Positions 42,146-62,660 of a DNA stretch of 64,000 bases are shown in pieces. Position 1 is the stretch's first letter, and every line of letters begins with the position of its first letter. The notes under the pieces are model-generated. The model had not been told where the DNA came from and did not search any database. It saw only the letters and a program-made list of their open reading frames with translations. This stretch comes from Escherichia coli (GTDB taxonomy: Bacteria; Pseudomonadota; Gammaproteobacteria; Enterobacterales; Enterobacteriaceae): NCBI RefSeq assembly GCF_024700885.2, contig NZ_CP117016.1; one strand, given 5' to 3'. The translations under genes were made by a program, and so were the position numbers.

Positions 42146-42621
42146 ATCACAGCGAAACAATCACCATCGAATGCACCATTAACGGGATGCCTTTTCAGCT
42201 TCACGCCGCACCAGGCACGCCGCTCTCGGAATTACTCCGCGAACAAGGACTGCTAAGTGTCAAACAAGGGTGCTGCGTGGGTGAATGTGGTGCCTGTACG
42301 GTGCTGGTCGACGGCACAGCAATAGACAGTTGCTTATACCTTGCCGCCTGGGCTGAAGGAAAAGAGATCCGCACGCTGGAAGGTGAAGCGAAAGGCGGAA
42401 AACTTTCTCATGTACAGCAGGCTTATGCTAAATCCGGCGCAGTGCAGTGCGGGTTTTGTACGCCTGGCCTGATTATGGCTACCACAGCAATGCTGGCGAA
42501 ACCACGCGAGAAGCCATTAACCATTACGGAAATTCGTCGCGGACTGGCGGGAAATCTTTGTCGCTGCACGGGGTATCAGATGATTGTAAATACAGTTCTG
42601 GATTGCGAGAAAACGAAGTAA
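42142..42621 (+). CDS. xdhC: Xanthine dehydrogenase [2Fe-2S] subunit
   Basis: 159-aa ORF with both 2Fe-2S cysteine motifs ([11 protein letters not shown] ... QCGFCTPG ... CRCTGY). Confidence 0.95.
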
Positions 42622-44439: not shown

Positions 44440-44808
44440 AGCTTTACCTTCCAGACTTACTTAAAAGTCGATCATTGAAGACGTTGATGGTTCACAGATC
44501 ATGATGATATTAACTCAGGCGAAATTGGCTTTGATAAAAACATAAGATTTTTATCACTTTCTAATGAAATTATGGAAGAGATATCACATTTCTATATCAA
44601 TATGAGAATTACGGCGGTGAGTTTATCAAACTGAAGAGAGAGCGCCTGTTCCTTTATCTTATTTCTGATACTTAGCAGCAAATAAATAACGCGATAAAAA
44701 AAGCCAAACGTTTTCGTATTTTACAAACAACCAGAAGCTGGCATCAATTTGTGATCAACCCCACACATTACCCGTCAAATTAGTCTTTTGCAGCCGCTTG
44801 GATAATTC

Positions 44809-46106: not shown

Positions 46107-46163
46107 CCCCTCGGGCCGATCAGCTGGTCGGCCCTCTATTTCCAGAGGCCAAAAGGATAGGAT

Positions 46164-47360
46164 ATGTCCGTTTTCTCATTGAAGATTGATATCGCCGATA
46201 ACAAATTTTTCAACGGCGAAACATCACCGCTCTTTTCGCAAAGCCAGGCCAAACTGGCGCGCCAGTTCCACCAGAAAATTGCTGGTTATCGCCCAACACC
46301 GCTTTGTGCGCTGGACGATCTCGCAAACCTTTTTGGTGTGAAGAAAATTCTCGTCAAAGACGAATCAAAACGATTCGGTCTGAACGCCTTCAAAATGCTC
46401 GGCGGTGCGTACGCCATCGCTCAATTATTGTGTGAAAAATATCATCTTGATATCGAAACGCTGTCATTTGAGCATCTGAAAAATGCCATCGGCGAAAAAA
46501 TGACCTTCGCGACCACCACCGACGGCAACCACGGGCGCGGTGTGGCATGGGCAGCACAGCAACTCGGACAGAATGCGGTGATTTACATGCCGAAAGGTTC
46601 TGCTCAGGAACGCGTTGACGCCATTCTGAACCTCGGTGCCGAGTGCATCGTCACGGATATGAACTATGACGATACCGTTCGCCTGACCATGCAACACGCG
46701 CAGCAGCACGGCTGGGAAGTGGTGCAAGATACCGCCTGGGAAGGTTACACCAAAATCCCAACCTGGATCATGCAGGGCTATGCAACACTGGCAGATGAAG
46801 CCGTCGAGCAAATGCGTGAAATGGGCGTAACCCCGACGCACGTTCTGCTGCAAGCTGGTGTCGGTGCAATGGCCGGTGGTGTGCTGGGTTATCTGGTCGA
46901 CGTCTATAGCCCGCAAAATCTGCACAGCATTATTGTTGAACCTGACAAAGCTGACTGTATTTATCGCTCCGGCGTCAAAGGCGACATCGTCAACGTTGGC
47001 GGTGATATGGCCACCATCATGGCGGGCCTGGCCTGCGGCGAACCTAACCCGCTGGGCTGGGAAATCCTACGTAACTGCGCCACCCAATTCATCTCCTGCC
47101 AGGACAGTGTTGCCGCATTAGGTATGCGTGTGCTGGGTAATCCGTACGGCAATGACCCGCGCATCATCTCCGGTGAATCCGGCGCTGTCGGTTTGGGCGT
47201 TCTCGCAGCGGTTCATTATCACCCGCAACGTCAAAGCCTGATGGAAAAACTGGCGCTGAACAAAGATGCCGTAGTGCTGGTTATCAGCACTGAAGGCGAC
47301 ACAGACGTGAAGCACTACCGCGAAGTTGTCTGGGAAGGCAAACACGCTGTAGCACCTTAA
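46164..47360 (+). CDS. ygeX: PLP-dependent 2,3-diaminopropionate ammonia-lyase
   Basis: 398-aa fold-type II PLP enzyme ORF. Confidence 0.9.
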   Translation: MSVFSLKIDIADNKFFNGETSPLFSQSQAKLARQFHQKIAGYRPTPLCALDDLANLFGVKKILVKDESKRFGLNAFKMLGGAYAIAQLLCEKYHLDIETLSFEHLKNAIGEKMTFATTTDGNHGRGVAWAAQQLGQNAVIYMPKGSAQERVDAILNLGAECIVTDMNYDDTVRLTMQHAQQHGWEVVQDTAWEGYTKIPTWIMQGYATLADEAVEQMREMGVTPTHVLLQAGVGAMAGGVLGYLVDVYSPQNLHSIIVEPDKADCIYRSGVKGDIVNVGGDMATIMAGLACGEPNPLGWEILRNCATQFISCQDSVAALGMRVLGNPYGNDPRIISGESGAVGLGVLAAVHYHPQRQSLMEKLALNKDAVVLVISTEGDTDVKHYREVVWEGKHAVAP

Positions 47361-47417
47361 TCACCCTATTGGAACTGCTCCCTGCAAAACGGGGAGTAAA
47401 AAATCTGGAGAAAAATA

Positions 47418-48629
47418 ATGGCTAAGAATATTCCATTCAAACTGATTCTTGAAAAAGCAAAAGATTACCAGGCGGACATGACTCGCTTCCTGCGCGACAT
47501 GGTTGCTATTCCCAGTGAAAGCTGCGACGAAAAACGCGTAGTACATCGTATTAAAGAAGAGATGGAAAAAGTCGGCTTCGATAAAGTTGAAATCGACCCG
47601 ATGGGCAACGTTCTCGGTTATATCGGCCACGGCCCGCGTCTGGTGGCAATGGACGCTCATATTGATACCGTCGGCATTGGCAACATCAAAAACTGGGACT
47701 TCGATCCGTACGAAGGCATGGAAACTGATGAGCTGATCGGTGGTCGCGGTACTTCCGACCAGGAAGGCGGCATGGCATCTATGGTTTATGCCGGTAAAAT
47801 CATTAAAGACCTCGGTCTGGAAGATGAATATACCCTGCTGGTTACCGGTACTGTGCAGGAAGAAGACTGCGACGGTCTGTGCTGGCAGTACATTATTGAA
47901 CAATCCGGCATTCGCCCGGAATTTGTGGTCAGTACCGAACCAACCGACTGCCAGGTATACCGTGGTCAGCGCGGTCGTATGGAAATTCGTATTGATGTTC
48001 AGGGTGTTAGCTGCCACGGTTCTGCGCCAGAACGCGGTGACAACGCCATTTTCAAAATGGGTCCGATTCTTGGCGAATTACAAGAACTCTCCCAACGTCT
48101 GGGTTATGACGAATTCCTCGGCAAAGGCACCCTCACCGTTTCTGAAATCTTCTTCACATCCCCAAGCCGTTGCGCTGTAGCAGATAGCTGCGCCGTCTCT
48201 ATTGACCGCCGTCTGACCTGGGGCGAAACCTGGGAAGGCGCGCTGGACGAAATCCGCGCCCTGCCTGCAGTACAGAAAGCTAACGCGGTTGTTTCTATGT
48301 ACAACTACGACCGTCCGTCCTGGACTGGCCTGGTTTACCCAACCGAATGCTACTTCCCGACCTGGAAAGTGGAAGAAGATCACTTCACCGTTAAAGCACT
48401 GGTGAATGCCTACGAAGGTCTGTTTGGCAAAGCGCCGGTTGTTGATAAGTGGACCTTCTCAACTAACGGCGTATCTATCATGGGCCGTCACGGCATTCCG
48501 GTGATCGGCTTTGGCCCAGGTAAAGAACCTGAAGCGCATGCACCTAACGAAAAAACCTGGAAATCTCACCTGGTGACCTGTGCCGCGATGTACGCGGCAA
48601 TCCCGTTAAGCTGGCTGGCAACCGAATAA
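47418..48629 (+). CDS. ygeY: M20-family peptidase / deacylase
   Basis: 403-aa ORF of the ArgE/DapE/M20 family. Confidence 0.9.
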
Positions 48630-48646
48630 TTACTCTTCACTTATTC

Positions 48647-48671
48647 CCCTCCGGTTCGCCGGAGGGTTTTT
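48647..48671 (+). terminator. Intrinsic terminator / attenuator between ygeY and hyuA
   Basis: Stem CCCTCCGG / CCGGAGGG with UUCG tetraloop followed by T5 (48667-48671), 11 nt before the hyuA ATG. Confidence 0.6.
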
Positions 48672-48681
48672 GGAGTTTGCT

Positions 48682-50067
48682 ATGCGCGTATTGATCAAAA
48701 ACGGCACTGTCGTTAACGCAGATGGACAAGCCAAACAGGATTTGCTGATTGAAAGCGGGATTGTTCGCCAGTTGGGCAACAATATTTCGCCACAGCTCCC
48801 GTATGAAGAAATTGATGCCACTGGCTGTTACGTTTTCCCTGGCGGCGTGGATGTCCATACGCATTTCAATATTGATGTCGGCATCGCGCGCAGTTGTGAT
48901 GATTTTTTTACCGGTACCCGCGCAGCTGCGTGTGGCGGTACAACAACCATTATTGACCATATGGGATTTGGCCCGAATGGCTGCCGGTTACGCCATCAAC
49001 TGGAGGTTTATCGTGGTTATGCCGCCCATAAGGCGGTCATCGACTACAGCTTTCACGGTGTGATCCAGCACATTAATCACGCCATCCTCGACGAAATTCC
49101 GATGATGGTCGAAGAAGGACTGAGCAGTTTTAAACTCTATTTAACCTATCAATACAAACTCAACGATGACGAAGTTTTGCAGGCGTTACGCCGCTTGCAT
49201 GAGTCCGGCGCGCTGACCACCGTGCACCCGGAAAATGATGCAGCTATCGCCAGCAAGCGGGCGGAGTTTATTGCCGCAGGGTTAACCGCGCCGCGCTATC
49301 ACGCCTTGAGTCGCCCTCTGGAATGCGAAGCGGAAGCCATCGCCCGCATGATTAACCTGGCACAAATTGCCGGTAACGCCCCGCTCTATATCGTGCACCT
49401 GTCTAACGGCTTAGGTCTGGATTATCTGCGTCTTGCCCGTGCGAATCACCAGCCAGTCTGGGTTGAAACCTGCCCACAATATCTCCTGTTGGACGAACGC
49501 AGTTACGATACAGAAGATGGCATGAAGTTCATTCTTAGCCCACCGCTGCGTAACGTACGCGAGCAGGACAAACTGTGGTGTGGCATCAGCGATGGTGCGA
49601 TTGACGTGGTAGCGACCGATCACTGCACATTCTCGATGGCTCAACGCCTGCAAATTTCTAAAGGCGATTTCAGTCGCTGCCCAAATGGCTTACCCGGTGT
49701 GGAAAACCGCATGCAGTTACTGTTTTCCAGTGGCGTTATGACGGGACGTATAACACCGGAACGTTTTGTTGAATTAACCAGCGCGATGCCCGCCAGGCTG
49801 TTTGGCCTGTGGCCGCAAAAAGGATTATTAGCGCCCGGTTCCGATGGCGACGTGGTGATTATCGACCCACGTCAGAGTCAACAAATTCAGCATCGCCATC
49901 TCCACGACAACGCCGACTACTCGCCATGGGAGGGTTTTACCTGTCAGGGCGCGATTGTCAGAACTTTATCCCGTGGTGAAACGATTTTCTGTGACGGCAC
50001 TTTTACAGGCAAAGCCGGGCGAGGTCGTTTCCTGCGACGCAAACCGTTTGTCCCTCCCGTGCTCTAA
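48682..50067 (+). CDS. hyuA: D-hydantoinase / dihydropyrimidinase-family amidohydrolase
   Basis: ORF track frame opens at 48670 (TTG); ATG at 48682 with GGAG RBS; metal-binding DVHTHF motif. Confidence 0.9.
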   Translation: MRVLIKNGTVVNADGQAKQDLLIESGIVRQLGNNISPQLPYEEIDATGCYVFPGGVDVHTHFNIDVGIARSCDDFFTGTRAAACGGTTTIIDHMGFGPNGCRLRHQLEVYRGYAAHKAVIDYSFHGVIQHINHAILDEIPMMVEEGLSSFKLYLTYQYKLNDDEVLQALRRLHESGALTTVHPENDAAIASKRAEFIAAGLTAPRYHALSRPLECEAEAIARMINLAQIAGNAPLYIVHLSNGLGLDYLRLARANHQPVWVETCPQYLLLDERSYDTEDGMKFILSPPLRNVREQDKLWCGISDGAIDVVATDHCTFSMAQRLQISKGDFSRCPNGLPGVENRMQLLFSSGVMTGRITPERFVELTSAMPARLFGLWPQKGLLAPGSDGDVVIIDPRQSQQIQHRHLHDNADYSPWEGFTCQGAIVRTLSRGETIFCDGTFTGKAGRGRFLRRKPFVPPVL

Positions 50068-50114
50068 CCACTGCCAAGGATCTATACACAATCAAGAATG
50101 ATGAGTGAGGAAAA

Positions 50115-51047
50115 ATGAGTAAGAAAATTGTTCTCGCCCTGGGCGGGAATGCGCTGGGCGACGATCTGGCCGGGCAAATGAAAGCGGTAAAAATTACTTC
50201 TCAGGCAATTGTTGATTTAATTGCCCAGGGACATGAGGTCATCGTCACTCACGGTAACGGGCCACAGGTGGGCATGATTAACCAGGCCTTTGAAGCTGCC
50301 GCAAAAACTGAAGCGCACTCGCCAATGCTGCCGATGTCTGTCTGTGTTGCCTTAAGCCAGGGTTATATTGGTTACGATCTACAAAACGCATTAAGAGAAG
50401 AACTGCTTTCTCGTGGCATTAATAAACCTGTAGCAACGCTGGTTACCCAGGTCGAAGTCGATGCTAACGACCCGGCATTCCTCAACCCGACCAAACCGAT
50501 CGGTTCGTTCTTTACCGAGCAAGAAGCAGAGCAACTGACAAAACAGGGTTACACTCTGAAAGAAGATGCTGGTCGCGGCTATCGCCGTGTTGTTGCCTCG
50601 CCAAAACCGGTTGATATCATTGAAAAAGAAACGGTTAAAGCGTTGGTAGATGCAGGCCAGGTGGTGATCACCGTTGGCGGTGGTGGTATCCCTGTTATTC
50701 GTGAAGGTAACCACCTGCGTGGTGCCAGTGCGGTTATCGATAAAGACTGGGCCAGCGCCCGTTTAGCAGAAATGATTGATGCCGATATGCTGATCATTCT
50801 GACTGCGGTAGAAAAAGTGGCCATTAACTTCGGTAAAGAGAATGAACAGTGGCTCGATCGCCTGTCATTAAGTGATGCTGAACGCTTTATCGAAGAAGGT
50901 CATTTTGCGAAAGGTTCTATGCTGCCTAAAGTGGAAGCTGCCGCCTCGTTTGCTCGCTCTCGCGCAGGTCGTGAAGCACTGATTACCGTATTGAGCAAAG
51001 CGAAAGAAGGGATTGAAGGCAAAACCGGAACGGTGATTTGTCAGTAA
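50115..51047 (+). CDS. yqeA: Carbamate kinase-like protein
   Basis: 310-aa amino-acid kinase family ORF (MSKKIVLALGGNAL). Confidence 0.9.
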   Translation: MSKKIVLALGGNALGDDLAGQMKAVKITSQAIVDLIAQGHEVIVTHGNGPQVGMINQAFEAAAKTEAHSPMLPMSVCVALSQGYIGYDLQNALREELLSRGINKPVATLVTQVEVDANDPAFLNPTKPIGSFFTEQEAEQLTKQGYTLKEDAGRGYRRVVASPKPVDIIEKETVKALVDAGQVVITVGGGGIPVIREGNHLRGASAVIDKDWASARLAEMIDADMLIILTAVEKVAINFGKENEQWLDRLSLSDAERFIEEGHFAKGSMLPKVEAAASFARSRAGREALITVLSKAKEGIEGKTGTVICQ

Positions 51048-51087: not shown

Positions 51088-52713
51088 TTAAGCCACTTCC
51101 AGCACTTCTTTTGTCGCTTTCACGCCCTGATGCATCAACATCATTAACGCCTCAAGTACGCCGCCGCCAATTGCCCGGGCTTTATCAGAAACGCTGGTGA
51201 AATCAGCCGTTTCACCACGAGGATCGATATCACCAATTTTAAAACCACCGACCACTGCTAGTCCGTCGTTCAACAAGCCACGCACCATCCCCGTCAACGG
51301 TGCTTTAATTTCATGCTCACCAATCCAGGCAATCACATCGCCCTCTTTCACCAGATCGCCTAATTTCACGTTGGATCGCATAATGCCTGCAGCAGGAGCA
51401 CGGATCACCCGTCGGGTGGTATGCCCCATAATATTGCTAGGAACACCGGTATTCTCCTGCGCACAACCAGAGTAAATCACCTGACCGAGCCAGTGCCCGC
51501 GATTTGTTTCAATTACCGCATGACAATCCTTCCCTGCAATAAAGCCCGGCCCAAGCGCGATTGTTACTGGTGCCATATCTGCCCGCGTCCCCAAATTCTG
51601 TTTCGCCAGAATAGCGTCCACCACGCAAAGCGGTTTCAGTTCATCAAGCAATGAACAGGCGGGATCTACCATCACAGGGATGAATCCGCGTTCGGTAAGT
51701 TTCATCGCTTCCGCAGAGCTGGTTGCCAGGCGGGCAGTGACGCCTTCGACCGTCATTTCGCCATCGAACACGGCCTGGGCAAACGCCACGGTACAACGAA
51801 TCACTGTCGGTTTTTCCACTTCCAGCATGATCACTTTAAAACCCGCATGATACAGACGTAGCGCCACACCACTGGCGATATCCCCCGCACCGCGAATCAC
51901 CACCAGCTGGTGTCCGGAAGGATGAGAAGGTTTCATCATCAGCCCACCCGGCGCGTTATTTTTCACCTGTAATATTTCTGCCAGCACGCTGATGGCGATC
52001 TCCTGCGGCGTTTCCGCACCTATGTTGTAACCAACGGGCGCATGTAAACGGGCAATATGTTCTTCAGCCACGCCTTTCTCACGCAATTGACGCAGGAAAA
52101 GCTGAACCTTGCGGCGACTTGCCAGCAACCCCAGCCATGCAATGGGCTGTTCAATGAGTTTGTCGAGGGCTTCACGATCCTGATTATTCGTGGCAATCAG
52201 GACAAAATTATCAGGGCGAATATCCAGTGCTTCCACTGCCGCACCAAACGACTCAGCATGGAGAAGCGTGGTTGATGGTGGGAATAATTCAGGATTGAGG
52301 CTTTCGCGATAAATATCGGCAACGGCAATATCAAATCCTAATAGCGCCGCACTCTGGGCTATCGCCCGGTTGACATGCCCCGCGCCAATCAACACCAGAC
52401 GTGGACGCATACCATGGACGCTGATAAATACGGACATTGCACCTCCACAATCTGACCCGACAGCATCCGCACCGTTACGAGCCATACGTCCATGGAATAA
52501 TCGCGGCTTACGTTCCTGCAATGCCTGAAGCGACTCTTCAATCACCTTCCGCTCAACCATTCCGCCACCAATTGTACCGACGATAGAGCCATCGGCGCGC
52601 ACTAACATTTGTGCAGAATGGCGGGGAGTCGAGCCTCGGCTATCAACAATTTGCGCCATCGCAAACGGACAATTTTGCTCTTCGAGTTTTGCAGCCTCTG
52701 TGAAAATATTCAT
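51088..52713 (-). CDS. yqeB: XdhC/CoxI-family molybdoenzyme maturation protein
   Basis: 541-aa ORF with Rossmann-like GxGxxG segments (LIGAGHV, IRGAGDIASG). Confidence 0.85.
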   Translation of the reverse strand: MNIFTEAAKLEEQNCPFAMAQIVDSRGSTPRHSAQMLVRADGSIVGTIGGGMVERKVIEESLQALQERKPRLFHGRMARNGADAVGSDCGGAMSVFISVHGMRPRLVLIGAGHVNRAIAQSAALLGFDIAVADIYRESLNPELFPPSTTLLHAESFGAAVEALDIRPDNFVLIATNNQDREALDKLIEQPIAWLGLLASRRKVQLFLRQLREKGVAEEHIARLHAPVGYNIGAETPQEIAISVLAEILQVKNNAPGGLMMKPSHPSGHQLVVIRGAGDIASGVALRLYHAGFKVIMLEVEKPTVIRCTVAFAQAVFDGEMTVEGVTARLATSSAEAMKLTERGFIPVMVDPACSLLDELKPLCVVDAILAKQNLGTRADMAPVTIALGPGFIAGKDCHAVIETNRGHWLGQVIYSGCAQENTGVPSNIMGHTTRRVIRAPAAGIMRSNVKLGDLVKEGDVIAWIGEHEIKAPLTGMVRGLLNDGLAVVGGFKIGDIDPRGETADFTSVSDKARAIGGGVLEALMMLMHQGVKATKEVLEVA

Positions 52714-52760
52714 ACCAACCTCAATGGATATCCTTTCAGTAACCCGGAATACCCGGGCCG

Positions 52761-53531
52761 CTAATTCACAAATCTGCGCGCGATTGCAGGATGTTCTTGT
52801 ATATCGCCCAGCCAGATTGCCTCTACGTCGTGTTGTTGCAGCGGTTGAAGGAGCTCGCTTTGTGCAATCGCATTCTCACATTGAGAAAAACGGTTAATGA
52901 ACCAGACTCGCCGACAACCTTGCGGTACGTTTTTAAATGCGCCCTGAGGGTGGCGAACCAGCGCAACGAGATCGCTCAGTTGCAAGGTTGCATCAGGTGT
53001 TAACCCGGTAATATCAGCAAACTGCGACCAGCGATGGACATTTTCTGTGCTCACTTTCGCGCCCAAAATATGTCCTCCCATCACAGCAATCACGCAGCAA
53101 CTGCTTTTGGGTATGCAAGGTTCGTGCTCATCAGGCGCTTTTAACGTCATTCCACGCGAGCCATCTGCCTCAATGAGAATTACGTCACACTCTGGTCGTT
53201 GCACCAGTGCATCAATCGCTTCTGGCGTAAATCCCTGCACTTTTCCCTGGTTCGCTTTCCAGCTGTGAAAACAAAATGAAATGGGGGATGTAAGAGACGC
53301 ATGAGGAAGCATGGCGGGATCACGACAGAAAACCACGGGCCAGTGAGACGTTGGCATAAACATATGTGTCGTCGTAGTGATTAACACACGCCTGCCGCTA
53401 GCCTGGAGCAGTTCTGCCAGCCAAAAAAGCAAGCTGGTTTTCCCCCCAGCCCCAACAACAGAAATCACAGTGGGACGTTTCTGCGCGCCTAAATCAATGA
53501 ATAATGCCGATGGGTCAACTATACTTTTCAC
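52761..53531 (-). CDS. yqeC: P-loop NTPase-like accessory protein (selenium-dependent molybdenum hydroxylase marker)
   Basis: 256-aa ORF with Walker A VVGAGGKTS. Confidence 0.85.
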   Translation of the reverse strand: MKSIVDPSALFIDLGAQKRPTVISVVGAGGKTSLLFWLAELLQASGRRVLITTTTHMFMPTSHWPVVFCRDPAMLPHASLTSPISFCFHSWKANQGKVQGFTPEAIDALVQRPECDVILIEADGSRGMTLKAPDEHEPCIPKSSCCVIAVMGGHILGAKVSTENVHRWSQFADITGLTPDATLQLSDLVALVRHPQGAFKNVPQGCRRVWFINRFSQCENAIAQSELLQPLQQHDVEAIWLGDIQEHPAIARRFVN

Positions 53532-53633
53532 GAGTCTTTATGACCTCTCTGGGATAAATTATCCCCAACTTAATCCATCAGGAAGTAACGCAATTATCAG
53601 GCGTTATTAGCCCCTATAAATAATGGAACCACT

Positions 53634-54212
53634 ATGTCAGCCATCGACTGTATAATTACCGCTGCCGGATTATCATCAAGAATGGGGCAATGGAAAATGA
53701 TGTTACCCTGGCAACAGGGAACAATTCTTGATACAAGTATCAAAAATGCGTTGCAGTTTTGTAGCCGAATTATTTTAGTCACCGGCTATCGTGGTAATGA
53801 ACTGCACGAGCGTTATGCGAACCAGAGCAATATCACTATTATCCACAACCCAGATTATGCGCAGGGTTTACTAACATCAGTAAAGGCCGCAGTACCCGCG
53901 GTAAAAACAGAATATTGTTTTCTCACCCACGGTGACATGCCTACCCTCACCATCGATATTTTTAGAAAAATCTGGTCGTTACGAAATGATGGCGCAATAC
54001 TGCCACTCCATAATGGCATTCCCGGCCATCCGATTTTAGTGTCAAAGCCATGCCTGATGCAGGCAATCCAGCGTCCCAATATCACCAATATGCGTCAGGC
54101 ACTCCTTATGGGAGATCATTATTCCGTCGAAATAGAAAATGCAGAAATAATTTTAGATATTGATACTCCGGACGACTTTATTACAGCGCAAAAAAGGTAT
54201 ACTAAAATTTAG
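53634..54212 (+). CDS. mocA: Molybdenum cofactor cytidylyltransferase (MobA-like NTP transferase)
   Basis: 192-aa ORF MSAIDCIITAAGLSSRMG (nucleotidyltransferase G-rich loop). Confidence 0.85.
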   Translation: MSAIDCIITAAGLSSRMGQWKMMLPWQQGTILDTSIKNALQFCSRIILVTGYRGNELHERYANQSNITIIHNPDYAQGLLTSVKAAVPAVKTEYCFLTHGDMPTLTIDIFRKIWSLRNDGAILPLHNGIPGHPILVSKPCLMQAIQRPNITNMRQALLMGDHYSVEIENAEIILDIDTPDDFITAQKRYTKI

Positions 54213-54436
54213 AAAATGTAGTTAAACGATTGCGTTCAAATATTTAATCCCTCCAGCACTCTTTATCATAATGATAAGGAATCACTGATTTTGAGAAAAG
54301 AGAAAAAGTGATAAATGGGCTGGCAATAATAATTTTCAGGAGTGATTTTAATTCTCATTTGGCACCTGTGAGTTCATTCACAAAAAGCTCCTAAGTTTCG
54401 AGCCGCCTCACATTTTTTTATATTTCCCGCCAAACC

Positions 54437-54451
54437 TGGCAAGAGTGGTGC
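54437..54451 (+). promoter_or_regulatory. Candidate sigma54 promoter upstream of ygfK
   Basis: TGGCAAG-AGTG-GTGC with GG-N10-GC spacing, about 85 nt upstream of the ygfK ATG; perfect palindrome TTATCA-TAA-TGATAA at 54263-54277. Confidence 0.3.
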
Positions 54452-54533
54452 GATTGTTGCTCTATCCCCCTAAACCACCGGATTTCTCAACACCGGTCAC
54501 TCAATGATATCTGTATAAGCTAAGGAGAGGGTT

Positions 54534-57500
54534 ATGGGGGATATTATGCGTCCCATTCCGTTTGAGGAACTTTTGACGCGCATATTTGATGAATACCAAC
54601 AACAACGCTCAATCTTTGGTATTCCCGAGCAACAGTTTTACTCACCCGTAAAAGGTAAAACTGTTAGCGTCTTCGGTGAAACCTGTGCCACTCCCGTCGG
54701 CCCTGCCGCTGGCCCGCACACGCAGCTCGCGCAAAATATTGTCACTTCCTGGCTGACTGGCGGGCGCTTCATCGAACTAAAAACCGTCCAAATTCTTGAC
54801 CGTCTGGAGCTGGAAAAGCCCTGTATCGATGCCGAAGACGAGTGCTTTAACACCGAATGGTCTACCGAATTTACCCTGCTTAAAGCCTGGGATGAATACC
54901 TCAAAGCCTGGTTTGCCCTGCACCTTCTCGAAGCGATGTTCCAGCCTTCTGATTCCGGTAAATCGTTCATCTTTAATATGAGCGTCGGTTATAACCTCGA
55001 AGGTATTAAGCAACCGCCGATGCAACAGTTCATCGACAATATGATGGATGCATCTGACCATCCGAAATTCGCTCAATATCGCGATACGCTGAATAAATTA
55101 CTCCAGGATGACGCATTTTTAGCCCGCCACGGATTGCAGGAAAAACGCGAATGCCTGCAGGCCTTACCGGCACGCATCCCCACCAGCATGGTAGAAGGCG
55201 TTACCCTCTCCACCATGCACGGCTGTCCTCCGCATGAAATCGAAGCCATTTGCCGCTACATGCTGGAAGAAAAAGGGCTCAATACCTTTGTGAAACTCAA
55301 CCCGACCTTACTGGGGTACGCGCGTGTTCGTGAGATCCTCGATGTCTGCGGTTTCGGTTACATAGGCTTAAAAGAAGAGTCATTTGATCACGACCTCAAG
55401 CTGACGCAAGCGCTGGAAATGCTGGAACGCCTGATGGTACTGGCAAAAGAAAAATCACTCGGCTTTGGCGTAAAACTGACTAACACTCTCGGCACCATCA
55501 ACAATAAAGGCGCACTGCCTGGTGAAGAGATGTATATGTCAGGCCGTGCGCTGTTCCCGCTCTCCATCAATGTTGCAGCAGTTCTCTCTCGCGCCTTTGA
55601 CGGCAAACTGCCCATTTCTTATTCCGGTGGTGCCAGTCAGCTGACTATCCGCGATATTTTTGATACTGGTATTCGCCCTATTACTATGGCAACCGACCTG
55701 CTGAAACCTGGCGGCTATCTGCGCTTAAGTGCCTGCATGCGCGAGCTGGAAGGCTCCGACGCCTGGGGGCTTGACCATGTTGACGTCGAACGCCTGAACA
55801 AACTGGCAGCAGACGCGTTAACCATGGAATACACTCAGAAACACTGGAAGCCAGAAGAGCGTATTGAAGTGGCAGAAGACCTGCCGCTGACCGACTGCTA
55901 CGTTGCACCGTGCGTTACTGCTTGCGCCATTAAACAGGATATTCCGGAATACATCCGTCTGCTTGGCGAACACCGCTATGCCGACGCACTGGAACTCATC
56001 TACCAACGCAACGCCCTGCCCGCCATTACCGGTCATATTTGCGATCACCAGTGCCAATACAACTGTACCCGCCTGGATTACGACAGTGCGCTGAATATCC
56101 GCGAACTGAAAAAAGTCGCGCTGGAAAAAGGTTGGGATGAATATAAGCAACGCTGGCACAAACCAGCCGGTTCTGGTTCACGCCATCCGGTTGCCGTGAT
56201 TGGTGCAGGTCCGGCGGGTCTGGCAGCAGGTTACTTCCTTGCCAGAGCGGGCCATCCGGTTACGCTGTTTGAACGCGAAGCCAATGCGGGCGGCGTGGTG
56301 AAAAATATCATTCCTCAGTTCCGTATTCCTGCAGAGTTAATTCAGCACGATATCGATTTTGTTGCCGCTCACGGCGTGAAATTTGAGTATGGCTGCTCAC
56401 CCGATTTGACCGTTGAACAGTTAAAAAATCAGGGCTTCCACTATGTTCTGATTGCCACCGGCACTGATAAAAATAGCGGTGTGAAACTGGCGGGCGACAA
56501 CCAAAATGTCTGGAAATCACTCCCCTTCCTGCGTGAATACAACAAGGGCACAGCGCTCAAGCTGGGCAAACATGTGGTCGTTGTCGGGGCGGGTAACACG
56601 GCAATGGACTGCGCTCGTGCGGCGTTACGCGTTCCAGGCGTAGAAAAAGCAACGGTCGTTTACCGTCGTTCACTGCAAGAGATGCCAGCATGGCGCGAAG
56701 AGTATGAAGAAGCGTTGCACGACGGTGTGGAGTTCCGTTTCCTGAATAATCCGGAACGTTTCGATGCTGATGGCACCTTAACCTTGCGCGTTATGTCGCT
56801 TGGCGAACCTGATGAGAAAGGTCGTCGCCGTCCGGTTGAAACCAACGAAACAGTAACACTGCATGTAGACAGCCTGATCACCGCCATTGGTGAACAGCAG
56901 GATACTGAAGCCCTGAATGCGATGGGCGTGCCGCTGGACAAAAACGGCTGGCCAGACGTCGACCATAATGGCGAAACTCGTCTGACTGACGTCTTTATGA
57001 TCGGCGACGTACAGCGCGGACCATCCTCCATTGTCGCTGCTGTCGGAACCGCGCGTCGGGCGACCGATGCCATCCTTAGTCGGGAAAACATCCGTTCCCA
57101 CCAGAACGATAAATACTGGAACAACGTCAATCCGGCGGAAATCTATCAACGCAAAGGCGATATCTCTATCACCCTGGTGGATAGCGACGATCGTGACGCG
57201 TTTGTCGCCCAGGAAGCCGCACGCTGCCTTGAATGTAACTACGTTTGCAGCAAGTGTGTGGATGTCTGCCCGAACCGCGCCAACGTATCCATTGCGGTCC
57301 CTGGCTTCCAGATCCGTTTCCAGACGCTGCACCTCGACGCTTACTGTAACGAATGCGGCAACTGCGCTCAGTTCTGCCCGTGGAACGGTAAACCGTACAA
57401 AGACAAAATCACCGTCTTCAGCCTGTCGCAAGACTTTGATAACAGCAGCAACCCTGGCTTCCTTGTGGAAGATTGCCGGGTACGAGTACGTCTGAATAAC

Positions 57501-57632
57501 CAAAGCTGGGTGTTAAACATCGACAGCGAAGGTCAGTTCAACAACGAACCACCGGAGCTGAACGATATGTGCCGCATTATTAGCCATGTCCACCAGCATC
57601 ATCATTATCTGCTGGGCCGCGTGGAGGTGTAA
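54534..57632 (+). CDS. ygfK: Large Fe-S flavoprotein oxidoreductase (GltD-like FAD/NAD(P) domain + 2x[4Fe-4S])
   Basis: 1032-aa ORF; dinucleotide-binding VAVIGAGPAGLAAG; ferredoxin-type motifs CLECNYVCSKCVDVCP and CNECGNCAQFCP. Confidence 0.9.
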   Translation: MGDIMRPIPFEELLTRIFDEYQQQRSIFGIPEQQFYSPVKGKTVSVFGETCATPVGPAAGPHTQLAQNIVTSWLTGGRFIELKTVQILDRLELEKPCIDAEDECFNTEWSTEFTLLKAWDEYLKAWFALHLLEAMFQPSDSGKSFIFNMSVGYNLEGIKQPPMQQFIDNMMDASDHPKFAQYRDTLNKLLQDDAFLARHGLQEKRECLQALPARIPTSMVEGVTLSTMHGCPPHEIEAICRYMLEEKGLNTFVKLNPTLLGYARVREILDVCGFGYIGLKEESFDHDLKLTQALEMLERLMVLAKEKSLGFGVKLTNTLGTINNKGALPGEEMYMSGRALFPLSINVAAVLSRAFDGKLPISYSGGASQLTIRDIFDTGIRPITMATDLLKPGGYLRLSACMRELEGSDAWGLDHVDVERLNKLAADALTMEYTQKHWKPEERIEVAEDLPLTDCYVAPCVTACAIKQDIPEYIRLLGEHRYADALELIYQRNALPAITGHICDHQCQYNCTRLDYDSALNIRELKKVALEKGWDEYKQRWHKPAGSGSRHPVAVIGAGPAGLAAGYFLARAGHPVTLFEREANAGGVVKNIIPQFRIPAELIQHDIDFVAAHGVKFEYGCSPDLTVEQLKNQGFHYVLIATGTDKNSGVKLAGDNQNVWKSLPFLREYNKGTALKLGKHVVVVGAGNTAMDCARAALRVPGVEKATVVYRRSLQEMPAWREEYEEALHDGVEFRFLNNPERFDADGTLTLRVMSLGEPDEKGRRRPVETNETVTLHVDSLITAIGEQQDTEALNAMGVPLDKNGWPDVDHNGETRLTDVFMIGDVQRGPSSIVAAVGTARRATDAILSRENIRSHQNDKYWNNVNPAEIYQRKGDISITLVDSDDRDAFVAQEAARCLECNYVCSKCVDVCPNRANVSIAVPGFQIRFQTLHLDAYCNECGNCAQFCPWNGKPYKDKITVFSLSQDFDNSSNPGFLVEDCRVRVRLNNQSWVLNIDSEGQFNNEPPELNDMCRIISHVHQHHHYLLGRVEV

Positions 57633-57634
57633 TC

Positions 57635-58963
57635 ATGTTGATTCTGAAGAATGTCACCGCAGTGCAGTTACACCCGGCGAAAGTGCAGGAAGGCGTTGAT
57701 ATCGCCATCGAAAATGATGTGATTGTCGCTATCGGCGATGCCCTGACGCAACGCTACCCCGATGCCAGCTACAAAGAGATGCATGGTCGGATTGTGATGC
57801 CAGGAATTGTCTGCTCGCACAACCATTTTTACTCGGGGCTGTCCCGCGGAATTATGGCAAACATCGCCCCCTGCCCGGATTTCATCTCAACGCTGAAAAA
57901 TCTCTGGTGGCGACTCGATCGCACCCTTGATGAAGAGTCGCTCTATTACAGCGGACTGATTTGTTCCCTGGAAGCGATTAAGGGCGGATGTACATCGGTT
58001 ATCGATCACCATGCCTCTCCGGCGTATATCGACGGGTCGCTCTCCACATTGCGCAACGCATTTTTAAAAGTTGGCCTGCGCGCGATGACCTGTTTTGAAA
58101 CTACTGACCGTAACAACGGTATCAAAGAGTTGCAGGAAGGTGTAGAAGAAAACATCCGCTTCGCCCGTCAGATTGATGAGGCGAAGAAAGCAGCAACCGA
58201 ACCGTATCTGGTGGAAGCACATATCGGCGCTCACGCGCCGTTTACCGTGCCGGATGCCGGTCTGGAGATGCTGCGTGAAGCCGTGAAAGCCACAGGTCGT
58301 GGTTTGCACATTCACGCTGCGGAAGACCTTTATGACGTTTCCTACAGTCACCACTGGTACGGCAAAGACCTGCTGGCACGACTGGCGCAATTCGATCTCA
58401 TCGACAGCAAAACGCTGGTCGCTCATGGGCTGTACTTGTCGAAAGATGACATCGCCCTACTCAATCAGCGCGATGCGTTCCTAGTGCATAACGCCCGTTC
58501 AAACATGAACAACCATGTCGGCTACAACCATCACCTTAGCGACATCCGCAATCTGGCGTTGGGAACTGACGGCATTGGTTCGGACATGTTTGAAGAGATG
58601 AAATTTGCCTTCTTTAAACATCGCGATGCGGGTGGTCCGCTGTGGCCTGACAGTTTTGCCAAAGCACTGGCTAACGGCAACGAACTGATGAGCCGCAACT
58701 TTGGCGCGAAATTTGGCCTTCTGGAAGCCGGTTACAAAGCCGATTTAACCATTTGCGATTACAACTCGCCGACACCGCTGCTGGCAGACAATATCGCCGG
58801 GCATATCGCTTTCGGTATGGGCTCAGGCAGCGTTCATAGCGTGATGGTCAATGGCGTGATGGTCTATGAAGACCGTCAGTTTAACTTCGATTGCGATTCC
58901 ATTTATGCGCAAGCCAGAAAAGCCGCTGCCAGTATGTGGCGTCGGATGGATGCGCTGGCATAA
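57635..58963 (+). CDS. ssnA: Amidohydrolase (cytosine/guanine deaminase-like)
   Basis: 442-aa ORF with metal-binding HxH (CSHNHFY); 2 nt after ygfK stop. Confidence 0.9.
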   Translation: MLILKNVTAVQLHPAKVQEGVDIAIENDVIVAIGDALTQRYPDASYKEMHGRIVMPGIVCSHNHFYSGLSRGIMANIAPCPDFISTLKNLWWRLDRTLDEESLYYSGLICSLEAIKGGCTSVIDHHASPAYIDGSLSTLRNAFLKVGLRAMTCFETTDRNNGIKELQEGVEENIRFARQIDEAKKAATEPYLVEAHIGAHAPFTVPDAGLEMLREAVKATGRGLHIHAAEDLYDVSYSHHWYGKDLLARLAQFDLIDSKTLVAHGLYLSKDDIALLNQRDAFLVHNARSNMNNHVGYNHHLSDIRNLALGTDGIGSDMFEEMKFAFFKHRDAGGPLWPDSFAKALANGNELMSRNFGAKFGLLEAGYKADLTICDYNSPTPLLADNIAGHIAFGMGSGSVHSVMVNGVMVYEDRQFNFDCDSIYAQARKAAASMWRRMDALA

Positions 58964-58973
58964 ATGACAAATA

Positions 58974-58996
58974 CCCTCTTCCCGTAGGGAAGAGGG
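58974..58996 (+). terminator. GC-rich hairpin between ssnA and ygfM (attenuator or weak terminator)
   Basis: Perfect 10-bp stem CCCTCTTCCC-GTA-GGGAAGAGGG; the following U tract is weak. Confidence 0.4.
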
Positions 58997-59013
58997 TTAA
59001 ATAAGGAAAGAAG

Positions 59014-59793
59014 ATGATTGAACAATTTTTCAGGCCCGACTCTGTCGAACAGGCGCTGGAACTGAAGCGCCGCTACAAGGATGAAGCCGTCTGGTTCGCC
59101 GGGGGCAGCAAACTCAACGCTACACCAACCCGTACCGATAAAAAGATTGCCATTTCCTTACAGGATCTGGAACTGGACTGGGTTGACTGGGATAACGGTG
59201 CACTGCGGATTGGCGCAATGTCTCGCTTGCAGCCACTGCGTGATGCGCGATTTATTCCTGCAGCACTGCGTGAAGCCCTCGGCTTTGTCTACTCTCGCCA
59301 TGTTCGTAATCAGTCGACCATTGGTGGTGAAATCGCCGCCCGGCAGGAAGAGTCTGTGCTGCTTCCCGTCCTGCTGGCACTGGATGCTGAACTGGTTTTT
59401 GGCAATGGCGAAACACTGTCAATCGAAGAGTACCTGGCCTGCCCATGCGATCGCCTGCTAACCGAAATTATCATTAAAGATCCGTATCGCACCTGTGCGA
59501 CCCGCAAAATTAGCCGTTCTCAGGCAGGTTTAACCGTCGTGACGGCAGCCGTTGCAATGACAGACCACGACGGTATGCGAATTGCGCTGGATGGCGTCGC
59601 CAGTAAAGCCCTGCGTCTGCACGATGTTGAAAAACAAAATCTGGAAGGCAATGCACTTGAACAGGCTGTCGCCAACGCCATTTTCCCGCAGGAAGATTTG
59701 CGGGGCAGCGTGGCCTATAAACGCTATATCACGGGAGTTCTGGTAGCCGACCTTTATGCCGACTGCCAACAGGCTGGGGAGGAAGCCGTATGA
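59014..59793 (+). CDS. ygfM: FAD-binding molybdopterin dehydrogenase subunit
   Basis: 259-aa CO dehydrogenase flavoprotein-like ORF; overlaps xdhD start by 4 nt. Confidence 0.9.
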   Translation: MIEQFFRPDSVEQALELKRRYKDEAVWFAGGSKLNATPTRTDKKIAISLQDLELDWVDWDNGALRIGAMSRLQPLRDARFIPAALREALGFVYSRHVRNQSTIGGEIAARQEESVLLPVLLALDAELVFGNGETLSIEEYLACPCDRLLTEIIIKDPYRTCATRKISRSQAGLTVVTAAVAMTDHDGMRIALDGVASKALRLHDVEKQNLEGNALEQAVANAIFPQEDLRGSVAYKRYITGVLVADLYADCQQAGEEAV

Positions 59794-62660
59794 TCATCCA
59801 CTTTACTTTAAATGGCGCGCCTCAGGAGCTAACCGTTAATCCAGGCGAAAACGTGCAAAAGCTGTTGTTTAACATGGGAATGCACTCTGTACGCAACAGC
59901 GATGATGGATTCGGGTTTGCCGGTTCTGACGCAATTATCTGTAACGGTAATATCGTTAACGCGTCCTTGCTTATCGCCGCACAGTTAGAGAAGGCAGATA
60001 TTCGTACCGCAGAGTCTCTGGGCAAATGGAACGAGTTAAGTCTGGTTCAACAGGCAATGGTTGATGTTGGCGTGGTGCAGTCTGGTTATAACGATCCAGC
60101 TGCGGCTCTGATTATCACCGATCTTCTCGATCGCATTGCCACACCGACCCGCGAAGAGATCGACGACGCGCTTTCTGGTTTGTTCAGCCGCGATGCAGGC
60201 TGGCAACAATACTATCAGGTCATTGAACTGGCGGTTGCACGTAAAAATAATCCGCAGGCCACCATTGATATCGCTCCAACTTTCCGCGATGACCTTGAAG
60301 TCATTGGTAAGCATTATCCTAAAACTGATGCCGCGAAAATGGTGCAGGCGAAACCCTGCTATGTTGAAGACCGCGTAACGGCTGACGCCTGCGTCATTAA
60401 AATGTTACGTAGCCCACACGCTCACGCACTGATTACTCATCTGGATATCAGCAAAGCTGAAGCCTTACCGGGCGTTGTTCACGTTATTACTCACCTGAAT
60501 TGCCCGGATATCTACTATACCCCGGGCGGTCAGAGCGCACCGGAACCGTCACCGCTTGACCGCCGTATGTTCGGCAAGAAAATGCGTCACGTCGGCGATC
60601 GCGTTGCTGCGGTCGTCGCTGAAAGTGAAGAAATTGCGCTCGAAGCACTGAAGCTCATCGACGTTGAATATGAAGTGCTTAAACCTGTAATGTCGATCGA
60701 CGAAGCAATGGCGGAAGATGCGCCTGTCGTGCACGATGAACCGGTGGTGTATGTTGCTGGTGCGCCAGATACTCTGGAAGACGATAACAGCCATGCAGCC
60801 CAGCGCGGCGAACATATGATCATCAACTTCCCGATCGGTTCTCGCCCCCGTAAAAATATCGCCGCCAGTATTCATGGTCATATTGGCGATATGGACAAAG
60901 GCTTTGCCGATGCCGATGTGATCATTGAGCGAACCTATAACTCAACGCAGGCACAGCAGTGCCCGACTGAAACACATATCTGCTTTACCCGTATGGACGG
61001 CGATCGTCTGGTGATCCACGCCTCCACCCAGGTACCATGGCACTTACGCCGCCAGGTCGCGCGCCTCGTGGGCATGAAACAGCATAAAGTTCATGTCATT
61101 AAAGAGCGAGTTGGCGGCGGTTTTGGTTCCAAACAAGACATCCTGCTGGAAGAAGTGTGCGCCTGGGCAACCTGCGTGACCGGACGTCCGGTACTGTTCC
61201 GCTACACCCGTGAAGAAGAGTTTATTGCTAACACCTCTCGCCACGTCGCGAAAGTCACCGTCAAACTGGGCGCGAAAAAAGATGGTCGCCTGACGGCAGT
61301 GAAGATGGATTTCCGCGCCAACACGGGCCCTTACGGCAACCACTCACTCACCGTACCGTGTAACGGACCGGCGCTGTCGCTGCCGTTATATCCGTGTGAT
61401 AACGTCGATTTCCAGGTCACCACCTACTACAGCAACATTTGCCCAAATGGTGCTTATCAGGGTTATGGCGCGCCGAAAGGTAACTTCGCTATCACCATGG
61501 CATTAGCGGAACTGGCTGAACAGTTACAGATCGACCAGCTGGAAATTATCGAACGTAACCGTGTACACGAAGGGCAAGAGCTGAAAATTCTCGGTGCAAT
61601 CGGTGAAGGTAAAGCGCCGACCTCCGTTCCTTCCGCCGCCAGCTGCGCACTGGAAGAGATCCTGCGTCAGGGTCGCGAGATGATCCACTGGTCGTCACCG
61701 AAACCGCAAAATGGTGACTGGCACATCGGTCGCGGCGTCGCCATTATCATGCAGAAATCGGGTATCCCAGATATCGATCAGGCTAACTGCATGATCAAAC
61801 TGGAATCGGACGGCACCTTTATCGTTCATTCTGGCGGTGCGGATATTGGTACTGGTTTGGATACTGTGGTGACGAAACTGGCAGCAGAAGTGCTGCACTG
61901 CCCACCGCAGGACGTGCATGTTATCTCCGGTGATACCGATCATGCGTTGTTTGATAAAGGCGCATATGCCTCGTCCGGTACTTGCTTCTCGGGTAACGCG
62001 GCGCGTTTGGCAGCAGAAAATCTGCGGGAGAAAATTCTGTTCCACGGTGCACAAATGTTGGGTGAGCCAGTGGCAGATGTCCAACTAGCAACGCCGGGCG
62101 TCGTGCGCGGCAAGAAAGGCGAAGTTAGTTTCGGGGATATTGCCCATAAAGGCGAAACCGGCACCGGCTTTGGTTCACTGGTGGGAACTGGCAGTTATAT
62201 CACGCCTGATTTCGCCTTCCCGTATGGCGCAAACTTCGCTGAAGTTGCCGTCAACGCGCGTACGGGTGAAATCCGCCTGGATAAATTCTACGCCTTGCTG
62301 GACTGCGGTACACCGGTCAACCCGGAATTAGCATTGGGACAAATCTACGGTGCTACCCTGCGAGCTATCGGCCACAGTATGAGCGAAGAGATCATTTATG
62401 ACGCCGAAGGTCACCCGTTAACGCGTGATTTACGCAGTTACGGTGCACCGAAAATTGGTGACATTCCGCGTGATTTCCGCGCAGTGCTGGTGCCGAGCGA
62501 CGATAAAGTCGGCCCGTTCGGGGCGAAATCGATCTCGGAAATCGGTGTAAATGGCGCAGCTCCGGCGATTGCTACCGCAATTCACGATGCCTGCGGCATC
62601 TGGTTACGCGAATGGCATTTCACACCGGAGAAAATACTCACCGCGCTGGAAAAAATATAA
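59790..62660 (+). CDS. xdhD: Molybdopterin-binding hydroxylase with degenerate N-terminal Fe-S-like domain (putative hypoxanthine/purine oxidase)
   Basis: 956-aa ORF; C-terminal about 780 aa is aldehyde oxidase/XDH Mo-binding type; N-terminal about 165 aa aligns to XdhC but carries a single cysteine. Confidence 0.9.
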   Translation: MIIHFTLNGAPQELTVNPGENVQKLLFNMGMHSVRNSDDGFGFAGSDAIICNGNIVNASLLIAAQLEKADIRTAESLGKWNELSLVQQAMVDVGVVQSGYNDPAAALIITDLLDRIATPTREEIDDALSGLFSRDAGWQQYYQVIELAVARKNNPQATIDIAPTFRDDLEVIGKHYPKTDAAKMVQAKPCYVEDRVTADACVIKMLRSPHAHALITHLDISKAEALPGVVHVITHLNCPDIYYTPGGQSAPEPSPLDRRMFGKKMRHVGDRVAAVVAESEEIALEALKLIDVEYEVLKPVMSIDEAMAEDAPVVHDEPVVYVAGAPDTLEDDNSHAAQRGEHMIINFPIGSRPRKNIAASIHGHIGDMDKGFADADVIIERTYNSTQAQQCPTETHICFTRMDGDRLVIHASTQVPWHLRRQVARLVGMKQHKVHVIKERVGGGFGSKQDILLEEVCAWATCVTGRPVLFRYTREEEFIANTSRHVAKVTVKLGAKKDGRLTAVKMDFRANTGPYGNHSLTVPCNGPALSLPLYPCDNVDFQVTTYYSNICPNGAYQGYGAPKGNFAITMALAELAEQLQIDQLEIIERNRVHEGQELKILGAIGEGKAPTSVPSAASCALEEILRQGREMIHWSSPKPQNGDWHIGRGVAIIMQKSGIPDIDQANCMIKLESDGTFIVHSGGADIGTGLDTVVTKLAAEVLHCPPQDVHVISGDTDHALFDKGAYASSGTCFSGNAARLAAENLREKILFHGAQMLGEPVADVQLATPGVVRGKKGEVSFGDIAHKGETGTGFGSLVGTGSYITPDFAFPYGANFAEVAVNARTGEIRLDKFYALLDCGTPVNPELALGQIYGATLRAIGHSMSEEIIYDAEGHPLTRDLRSYGAPKIGDIPRDFRAVLVPSDDKVGPFGAKSISEIGVNGAAPAIATAIHDACGIWLREWHFTPEKILTALEKI

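Follow-up and report, generated by a model that had tools for sequence, protein, structure and literature searches.

We propose that a palindrome located upstream of ygfK in Escherichia coli, TTATCATAATGATAA, is the main upstream activating sequence (UAS) of the sigma-54 promoter that precedes ygfK-ssnA-ygfM-xdhD, and that it would be recognised by YgeV, a regulator encoded in the same gene cluster; we put the probability of this reading at roughly 0.78. The palindrome lies in a 64,000-nucleotide stretch of E. coli DNA (the window) that includes genes of the xdh-yge-ygf cluster. This cluster was demonstrated between 2023 and 2025 to serve the anaerobic degradation of uric acid and purines by gut bacteria, a process relevant to gout and to engineered probiotics, and no description of its activation in E. 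coli was found in the literature searched. A first-pass annotation, made from the sequence alone, had pointed to three strings in this region, namely the ygfK palindrome, a second palindrome between yqeC and mocA, and a sigma-54-like element ahead of ygfK, and had suggested a common regulator on the basis of a recurring GATAA half-site. All three strings are present exactly where it placed them, and its gene assignments (yqeC, mocA and ygfK) agree with the annotation. The elements that we discuss upstream of ygfK are as follows.

54263-54277: TTATCATAATGATAA, or TTATCA-TAA-TGATAA, the proposed primary enhancer (UAS) and candidate YgeV dimer site
54291-54298: TTGAGAAA, a half-site, probably a second and weaker YgeV contact
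54342-54360: GTGATTTTAATTCTCATTT, a conserved block that holds an inverted TTCTCA half-site
54367-54382: TGTGAGTTCATTCACA, or TGTGA-GTTCAT-TCACA, a putative CRP-type site centred at about -97.5
54437-54451, plus strand: TGGCAAGAGTGGTGC, the GG-N10-GC string of the first-pass annotation, which overlaps the true -24 element in the wrong register
54445-54461, plus strand: GTGGTGCGATTGTTGCT, the sigma-54 promoter of ygfK-ssnA-ygfM-xdhD

The whole window has 20 perfect inverted repeats with arms of 7 bp and a spacer of 0-3, against 16.8 +/- 4.8 in simulated sequence, and its intergenic DNA has 8, against 2.4. Because such repeats are not unusual in the window overall, palindromy by itself proves little, and the three elements were therefore judged separately. 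The segment 53300-54700 is 100% identical to the corresponding DNA of E. coli SMS-3-5 (NC_010498.1) and is carried by more than 5,100 E. coli genomes, and both palindromes are the same in K-12. For comparison over greater distances, we collected 18 orthologous loci from Escherichia, Citrobacter, Klebsiella indica, Atlantibacter, Kluyvera, Enterobacter, Intestinirhabdus and Edwardsiella, which together with the window gave 19 sequences, all from Enterobacterales. Distances to the -12 GC at ygfK and ygeW were measured in 18 sequences, and 200 kb of unrelated K-12 DNA served as the background for matrix and consensus scans.

The sigma-54 promoter of ygfK is real and already known. Bonocora et al. 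(PLoS Genet 11:e1005552, 2015) reported a strong sigma-54 peak, OS31 (FAT 26), upstream of ygfK by chromatin immunoprecipitation and sequencing (ChIP-seq), and the motif given there, 62 nt from ygfK and flagged as previously predicted, is GTGGTGCGATTGTTGCT. In this register the GG is at 54447-48 and the GC at 54459-60, and transcription is predicted to start near 54472. The first-pass annotation was thus right that a sigma-54 promoter precedes ygfK, but it set the -24/-12 register 9 bp too far upstream, and the GC that it took for the -12 is instead part of the true -24 element, TGGTGC. Using a sigma-54 matrix built from 38 other ChIP-seq sites (which themselves span 8.0-20.8 bits), we obtained 11.99 bits for 54445-54461 and 11.12 bits for the alternative at 54436-54452; with scores this close, the E. 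coli sequence alone cannot separate the two. We prefer the downstream register because it is conserved in the orthologues and reported from ChIP-seq. Specifically, TGG(T/C)G(C/T)GA(T/A)TGTTGCT is conserved in 19/19 sequences, whereas the alignment shows TGGCA at 54437-41 only in Escherichia and close relatives, with TGGTA already present in E. whittamii. The best match to the sigma-54 matrix in the window, CTGGCACGCGATGTGCA (16.4 bits, 5028-5044, minus strand), lies inside ptrA and is the intragenic ChIP-seq site IS33 of Bonocora et al.

The centre of the ygfK palindrome is about 202 bp upstream of the predicted transcription start. Its core, TATCA-N3-TGATA, is exact in 18/19 aligned sequences, and the remaining one (L012) has a single core substitution, located in its left arm (TTCTCA...TGATA). 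The triplet at the centre varies among TAA, TTA, ATT, TTT, AAG and TTG, and the flanks vary too; fixed halves around a variable centre are the signature of a dimeric DNA-binding protein. Within Escherichia, the 15 bp of the palindrome have 0-1 changes, against 4-13% divergence elsewhere in the spacer. In 15 sequences 189-190 bp separate the palindrome centre from the -12 GC, and in the other 3 the separation is 168-169 bp, so that the two classes differ by 21 bp, or two helical turns.

The first-pass annotation had cautioned that this palindrome resembles part of a Fur box, and ygfK could on that basis be repressed by iron-loaded Fur. We consider this extremely improbable. The Fur box consensus, GATAATGATAATCATTATC, does share the decamer ATAATGATAA with the palindrome, at its positions 2-11, and the best 19-mer in the site matches at 13/19 positions. 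However, the known Fur boxes of the ent/fep region score 15-16/19 in the same test, and the background contains 76 positions at 13/19 and 26 at 14/19 or above (102 at 13/19 or above), so that the resemblance is at background level. It is also not conserved: the orthologous sites score 10-13/19 while the TATCA and TGATA halves are invariant, indicating that conservation does not fall on the Fur-like letters. No overlap of 54263-77 with a sigma-70-like promoter was seen, and the site keeps a fixed helical phase to a sigma-54 promoter 190 bp away.

Several further elements of the ygfK spacer are conserved. A half-site of the form TTGA(G/T)AAA, TTGAGAAA in the window, begins exactly 21 bp past the palindrome centre in 17/18 sequences measured. 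The block GTGATTTTAATTCTCATTT, near-invariant in the alignment of 19, contains TTCTCA in inverted orientation; TTCTCA/TGAGAA is the variant half-site found at ygeW, ygfT, yqeC and the DioR sites of C. difficile, to which we return below. By pattern search, a perfect TGTGA-N6-TCACA core is present in the ygfK spacer in 15/18 sequences measured, and the alignment reveals an additional conserved CTCACA block. CRP-type sites (TGTGA-N6-TCACA or a single good TCACA half) were also seen more widely in the cluster, at 54367-54382, 54397-54412, 44750-44765 and approximately 38838-38853; they lie ~70-100 bp upstream of the predicted sigma-54 starts of ygfK, ygeW and xdhA and are conserved across genera. 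Their presence is consistent with the glucose repression of the pathway, which has been reported together with a Crp site in the ygeV-ygeW region (PMC12507026).

A motif related to the ygfK palindrome recurs at the other sigma-54 promoters of the cluster. The genes concerned, and the sites that we identified at them, are listed here from the annotation and from our scans.

38959-42621: xdhABC
42661-44439, minus strand: ygeV
44919-51047: ygeW-dpaL-ygeY-hyuA-arcC
51088-53531, minus strand: yqeB and yqeC (yqeC alone, 52761-53531)
53634-54212, plus strand: mocA
54534-62660: ygfK-ssnA-ygfM-xdhD (ygfK alone, 54534-57632, plus strand)
xanQ: the gene listed after ygfK-ssnA-ygfM-xdhD
38756-38789: TATCACATTGATT and ACTCATATTGATA, two sites upstream of xdhA, 21 bp apart, both matching the motif with 1 mismatch
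44595-44607: TATCAATATGAGA, or TATCA-ATA-TGAGA, in the ygeV-ygeW divergent region
44624-44636: TATCA-AAC-TGAAG, a second ygeV-ygeW site, 29 bp past the first
52874-52886: TCTCACATTGAGA, or TCTCA-CAT-TGAGA, inside the yqeC coding sequence, a probable downstream enhancer for PyqeC
53114-53130, minus strand: TGAGCACGAACCTTGCA, the intragenic sigma-54 promoter PyqeC, which drives yqeB

The shared element is TATCA-N3-TGA(T/G)A, which is more specific than a GATAA half-site. Allowing up to one mismatch, TATCANNNTGAKA has 25 matches in the window against 4.7 expected, and comparison of the match positions with the gene maps places none of them in the other 4.7 kb of intergenic DNA. An exact enumeration of 5-mer inverted repeats returned next to nothing for the four upstream regions, owing to the degeneracy of the half-sites (TGATA/TGAGA), a difficulty removed by tolerating one mismatch. 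When all 5-mer inverted dyads with spacers of 0-10 were scanned in this way (~5,600 dyads), TATCA-N3-TGATA ranked first, with 5 sites distributed over 4/4 sigma-54 upstream regions (1.65 kb) versus 5 in the other 62.8 kb (Poisson p = 5e-7 across the ~5,600 dyads). The motif is thus enriched over AT-rich intergenic background, the comparison on which the first-pass annotation had staked its proposal.

The sites also predict one another. A matrix constructed from the orthologous ygeW sites only gives its highest score in the window to the ygfK palindrome, and nothing in the 200-kb background reaches that score; in the reverse direction the ygeW site ranks second in the window. The site at 44595-44607 is conserved in all 18 sequences and lies 220-223 bp from the ygeW -12 element in 16/18 of them; the same spacer additionally holds a CRP-type site and a sigma-54 promoter. 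Both xdhA sites are conserved in 7 sequences from 4 genera. Outside the window, the K-12 ygfT-uacT spacer contains TATCAATATGAGA again, conserved in Citrobacter and Atlantibacter, and this site may serve both divergent promoters. That the ygfK palindrome carries a motif common to the cluster promoters implies a common regulator, and in this respect the original suggestion stands; the yqeC/mocA palindrome, as described below, falls outside the motif. One exact copy of the motif inside dpaL (ygeX), TATCATCTTGATA at 46440-46452, is probably fortuitous and was not counted as a site, because its conservation is limited to Escherichia and some Citrobacter.

A motif of this kind has been predicted in Clostridiales. 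In a genomic reconstruction of sigma-54 regulons in that order, Nie et al. (BMC Genomics 20:565, 2019; PMC6615313) predicted an activator, DioR, with its function listed as unknown, and assigned to it dpaL-pyrC-argE, ygeW-ygfK-ssnA-ygeY, yqeC-ygfJ-yqeB-xdhC and xdhABC. The predicted DioR sites given as examples in their supplement (ATTTATCATAATGATAAGG, ATTTATCAAAGTGATAAGT, TATTATCATTTTGATAATA, ATTTCCCAATATGAGAATT and ATTCTCGAATTGAGAATA) represent the same motif as the E. coli cluster sites, the TGAGAA variant included, and ATTTATCATAATGATAAGG, which precedes ygeW-ygfK in C. botulinum, agrees with the E. coli ygfK site at 18/19 positions. We built a matrix solely from the 22 published predicted clostridial sites and scanned the window with it. 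The three best matches were the sites in yqeC (52874), between ygeV and ygeW (44595) and upstream of ygfK (54264), at 18.2, 17.2 and 17.1 bits, with the next at 10.5; in the background, one position, inside rhsB, scores as high.

The two systems are alike in the palindrome TTATCA-N3-TGATAA and its variant TTCTCA-N3-TGAGAA, in the four groups of targets named above, and in their association with -24/-12 promoters, which often have two or three sites each. They differ in that DioR has been defined in Clostridiales only, and computationally only, whereas the E. coli sites occur together with CRP-type and PurR-type boxes and one of them, along with its promoter, lies inside a coding sequence. No link between E. 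coli YgeV and DioR was found in the literature searched.

YgeV is a true enhancer-binding protein, with PAS, Sigma54_activat (E = 2e-70), AAA_lid_14 and HTH_8 domains, and is the sole regulator gene product annotated between xdhA and uacT. Sigma-54 occupies ygfK, xdhA, ygeW, ygfT and yqeC according to ChIP-seq (Bonocora et al., 2015), and the YgeV iModulon comprises exactly these sigma-54-occupied operons. Many full-length homologues of YgeV are found at 35-41% identity. One of these, an enhancer-binding protein from a low-GC Firmicute with 39% identity, has a segment in its helix-turn-helix (HTH) region, LGIGIATLYRKI, that is identical to that of YgeV; the protein compared is a DioR-like homologue. 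Its gene lies on a 30%-GC contig beside an amino-acid permease and dpaL-, ygeY- and hyuA-like genes, and this contig carries exact TTATCA-N3-TGATAA sites before the activator gene and before dpaL, as well as a -24/-12 element, TTGGCTTTTGAATTGCT. A second homologue (P0013, locus L039), on a short contig with uninformative neighbours, has three exact copies of the motif at or just past the 3' end of its gene. Distant yqeB loci from Firmicutes and one Deltaproteobacterium (L020-L024) lack both the motif and an adjacent YgeV homologue and are uninformative in this respect. Taken together, the clostridial sites and the low-GC contig show the motif travelling with this activator family across phyla, and we know of no stronger argument for YgeV as its reader. 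YgeV, which the first-pass annotation had named for binding tests, is the best candidate for the common regulator.

An alternative is that the TATCA-N3-TGA(T/G)A sites are bound by another protein, either IHF, whose core is WATCAA, or an uncharacterised regulator, while YgeV contacts other conserved blocks. Indeed, TATCAA shares letters with the IHF core, sigma-54 promoters commonly involve IHF, each spacer does contain several other conserved blocks, and the assignment of YgeV to these sites is a prediction. Inspection for WATCAA-N4-TTR revealed, however, that TATCA(T/A) is present but the TTR part is absent from the orthologous sites, and the sites are symmetric, with both halves conserved. 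At the yqeC site of Edwardsiella the two halves have switched together, from TCTCA/TGAGA to TATCA/TGATA, and the motif follows genes of the YgeV family into low-GC Firmicutes with the same HTH segment. Given also that no other regulator gene is annotated from xdhA to uacT, we regard binding by a different protein as improbable and favour YgeV.

The yqeC site is located within a coding sequence and is linked to an intragenic promoter. PyqeC (site IS34 of Bonocora et al., 2015) was validated in that study by mutation, quantitative reverse-transcription PCR and Western blot and is needed for YqeB production. The promoter is conserved in 19/19 sequences, and the motif at 52874-52886 is conserved in all 18 orthologues, synonymous codon positions included. 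In Edwardsiella, the switch of both halves yields TATCAGATTGATA (TATCA...TGATA) at the cost of two amino-acid changes. The site is exactly 235.5 bp downstream of the PyqeC -12 GC in 19/19 sequences. No sigma-54 promoter was found between the yqeC-internal site and the yqeB start in any orthologue, while the validated PyqeC lies upstream of the site, and for this reason the simplest reading is that the site would be an enhancer acting from downstream.

From these data we infer the identity of the binder, the looping, the role of CRP and the nature of the signal in the following scheme. Sigma-54 RNA polymerase would wait as a closed complex on GTGGTGCGATTGTTGCT (54445-54461), and YgeV dimers would bind TTATCATAATGATAA together with the neighbouring half-sites TTGAGAAA and TTCTCA. 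A signal related to purines or urate may then lead YgeV to assemble into an active ATPase ring, which would reach the polymerase by DNA looping over ~190 bp, probably aided by CRP-cAMP bending the intervening DNA at TGTGAGTTCATTCACA (-97.5); ATP hydrolysis by YgeV would open the promoter. The same motif, TATCA-N3-TGA(T/G)A, would serve the sigma-54 promoters of xdhA, ygeW, ygfT/uacT and, within yqeC, yqeB, thereby forming one YgeV regulon for the anaerobic breakdown of purines and uric acid.

Enhancer-dependent sigma-54 promoters of the classical kind include those with UAS elements for NtrC (at glnAp2), NifA and FhlA. The arrangement proposed here resembles them in the use of palindromic sites for an AAA+ activator with a Fis-type HTH, in multiple sites about two helical turns apart, and in looping at a distance with dependence on helical phase, which for the E. 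coli cluster is proposed. It differs in the half-site sequence, in centres at a greater distance (about -130 to -235, with one located downstream, at +223), and in an architectural partner that appears to be CRP and not IHF. The study that reported OS31 concerns the same promoter; the activator and its binding site were not addressed there.

Several points weigh against YgeV acting at these sites. The ygfK site, centred at about -200, is beyond most characterised enhancers (about -80 to -150), and at yqeC activation would need to come from a position downstream of the promoter. Against the clostridial DioR matrix the xdhA sites score low, at 10.1 and 0.7 bits, and the DioR motif is itself a computational prediction. 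The searched ygeV literature, which did not cover the ygeV mutant study of Iwadate & Kato (2019), contained no YgeV binding site and no electrophoretic mobility shift assay (EMSA), ChIP, reporter or mutational data. YgeV has also been described in another role, as an indole-responsive regulator of LEE (locus of enterocyte effacement) genes (PMC9426417), and another protein could possibly recognise the same palindrome.

The palindrome between yqeC and mocA presents a different picture.

53551-53565: GGGATAAATTATCCC, a perfect 7-1-7 palindrome in the yqeC-mocA spacer

Its half-sites, GATAA-N1-TTATC, have the opposite orientation to those of TATCA-N3-TGATA, and it scores -26.8 bits on the clostridial DioR matrix. 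It is broken in 4/4 close relatives (E. whittamii, E. coli E69, Escherichia sp. E1V33 and 'Citrobacter' MGH106), where it has drifted in a neutral-like manner, with 2/17 to 6/17 differences compared to 10-31% in the surrounding spacer. The yqeC-mocA spacer measures 27-45 bp in 12/13 other sequences and 75 bp in Edwardsiella; the palindrome is absent from other genera, and the stretch that contains it is an insertion present only in Escherichia-like genomes. It is unrelated to the YgeV motif, lineage-specific and probably neutral, with no sign that it functions, and, unconserved even within Escherichia, it does not hold up as a site of the shared regulator.

These results also bear on the arrangement as first proposed, in which both palindromes would serve one regulator of GATAA half-sites and TGGCAAG-AGTG-GTGC would be the -24/-12 element. 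Both palindromes do contain GATAA/TTATC, and the string does have GG-N10-GC (11.1 bits); but the orientation and spacing of the half-sites differ between the two palindromes, the first of which is unconserved, and TGGCA is likewise unconserved, whereas the register 9 bp downstream is invariant and reported from ChIP-seq. We judge this arrangement highly improbable.

The yqeC-mocA palindrome could instead have a lineage-specific function, as an operator for the short divergent yqeC and mocA promoters, as an H-NS nucleation-type site or as a small leader hairpin. It is perfect, it is identical in SMS-3-5 and K-12, and it belongs to the intergenic excess of palindromes described above. Its GATAAATT resembles TCGATAAATT, a sequence of the H-NS nucleation type, and the palindrome would fall in the yqeC leader if transcription came from a sigma-70-like promoter found on the minus strand at 53620-53593. 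The leader RNA that includes it folds no better than shuffled sequence (z = -0.18), however, yqeB expression depends on the intragenic sigma-54 promoter and not on the yqeC-mocA spacer, and the palindrome decays at the rate of its surroundings. A function of this type appears unlikely, and neutrality is the reading that we prefer.

Already known, then, are the ygfK promoter and, as a prediction for clostridial DioR, the operator type; new here are the attribution of this operator type to YgeV of E. coli, the complete collection of sites in that species and the pair of elements inside yqeC. The analysis supplies a precise candidate YgeV operator, the correct promoter register and a list of candidate sites (xdhA, ygeV/ygeW, yqeC-internal, ygfK and ygfT/uacT), so that control by YgeV is now directly testable by EMSA, ChIP and reporter mutagenesis. 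The shared motif would explain the co-regulation of the YgeV iModulon, and it links an E. coli regulator to the clostridial DioR regulon.

Boxes of the PurR type were observed beside the enhancers. They are found at 44702-44717 and 54220-54235 and, in K-12, upstream of uacT (L025, 33821-33836), and they match ACGCAAACGTTTGCGT as follows: AGCCAAACGTTTTCGT at 13/16, AGTTAAACGATTGCGT at 12/16 and ACGTAAACGGTTGCTT at 13/16. The 200 kb of unrelated K-12 DNA contain a single 13/16 match, the known purR operator, and several genera share the first two boxes (AGCCAAACGTTTTCGT and AGTTAAACGATTGCGT). PurR would not be expected at sigma-54 promoters of purine catabolism, and a site there might be architectural or purine-sensing.

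Tentatively, and as a broader possibility about which we are doubtful, the whole YgeV/DioR sigma-54 module (activator, operator and promoter layout) may have been kept almost base for base between Clostridia and Enterobacteriaceae, as in the ygfK operators (18/19). In E. coli it would have been extended by a promoter and an enhancer 235 bp downstream of it within the yqeC frame, and by PurR-type boxes at ygeW, ygfK and uacT, with PurR then a purine-sensing architectural partner of YgeV and not a repressor.

Some additional features of the region were noted. In front of uacT (K-12, L025 33781-33797) there is a conserved sigma-54-like element, CTGGCACTCCACGAGCA, in the context AAAACTGGCA....GAGCATG in E. 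coli, Citrobacter and Atlantibacter; neither uacT nor ygfU is mentioned in the text of Bonocora et al. (2015). The ygeV-ygeW spacer contains an inverted repeat, TGATAAAAA-N7-TTTTTATCA, at 44532-44557, with its half-sites facing outward and conserved in most genera, which may represent two separate half-sites or serve ygeV's own promoter. No Rfam family matches 53400-54700. The ygfK leader has an inverted repeat, ACCGG-N11-CCGGT, at 54477-54497, which is conserved in most genera and has one compensatory variant, GTCGG...CCGAC, in Enterobacter. Finally, a copy of IS1A at 36689-37386, which lies between yqeH and tRNA-Gly in SMS-3-5, adjoins the purine cluster, and the corresponding side of the cluster in K-12 has IS2 plus different genes (ygeP and ygeQ).

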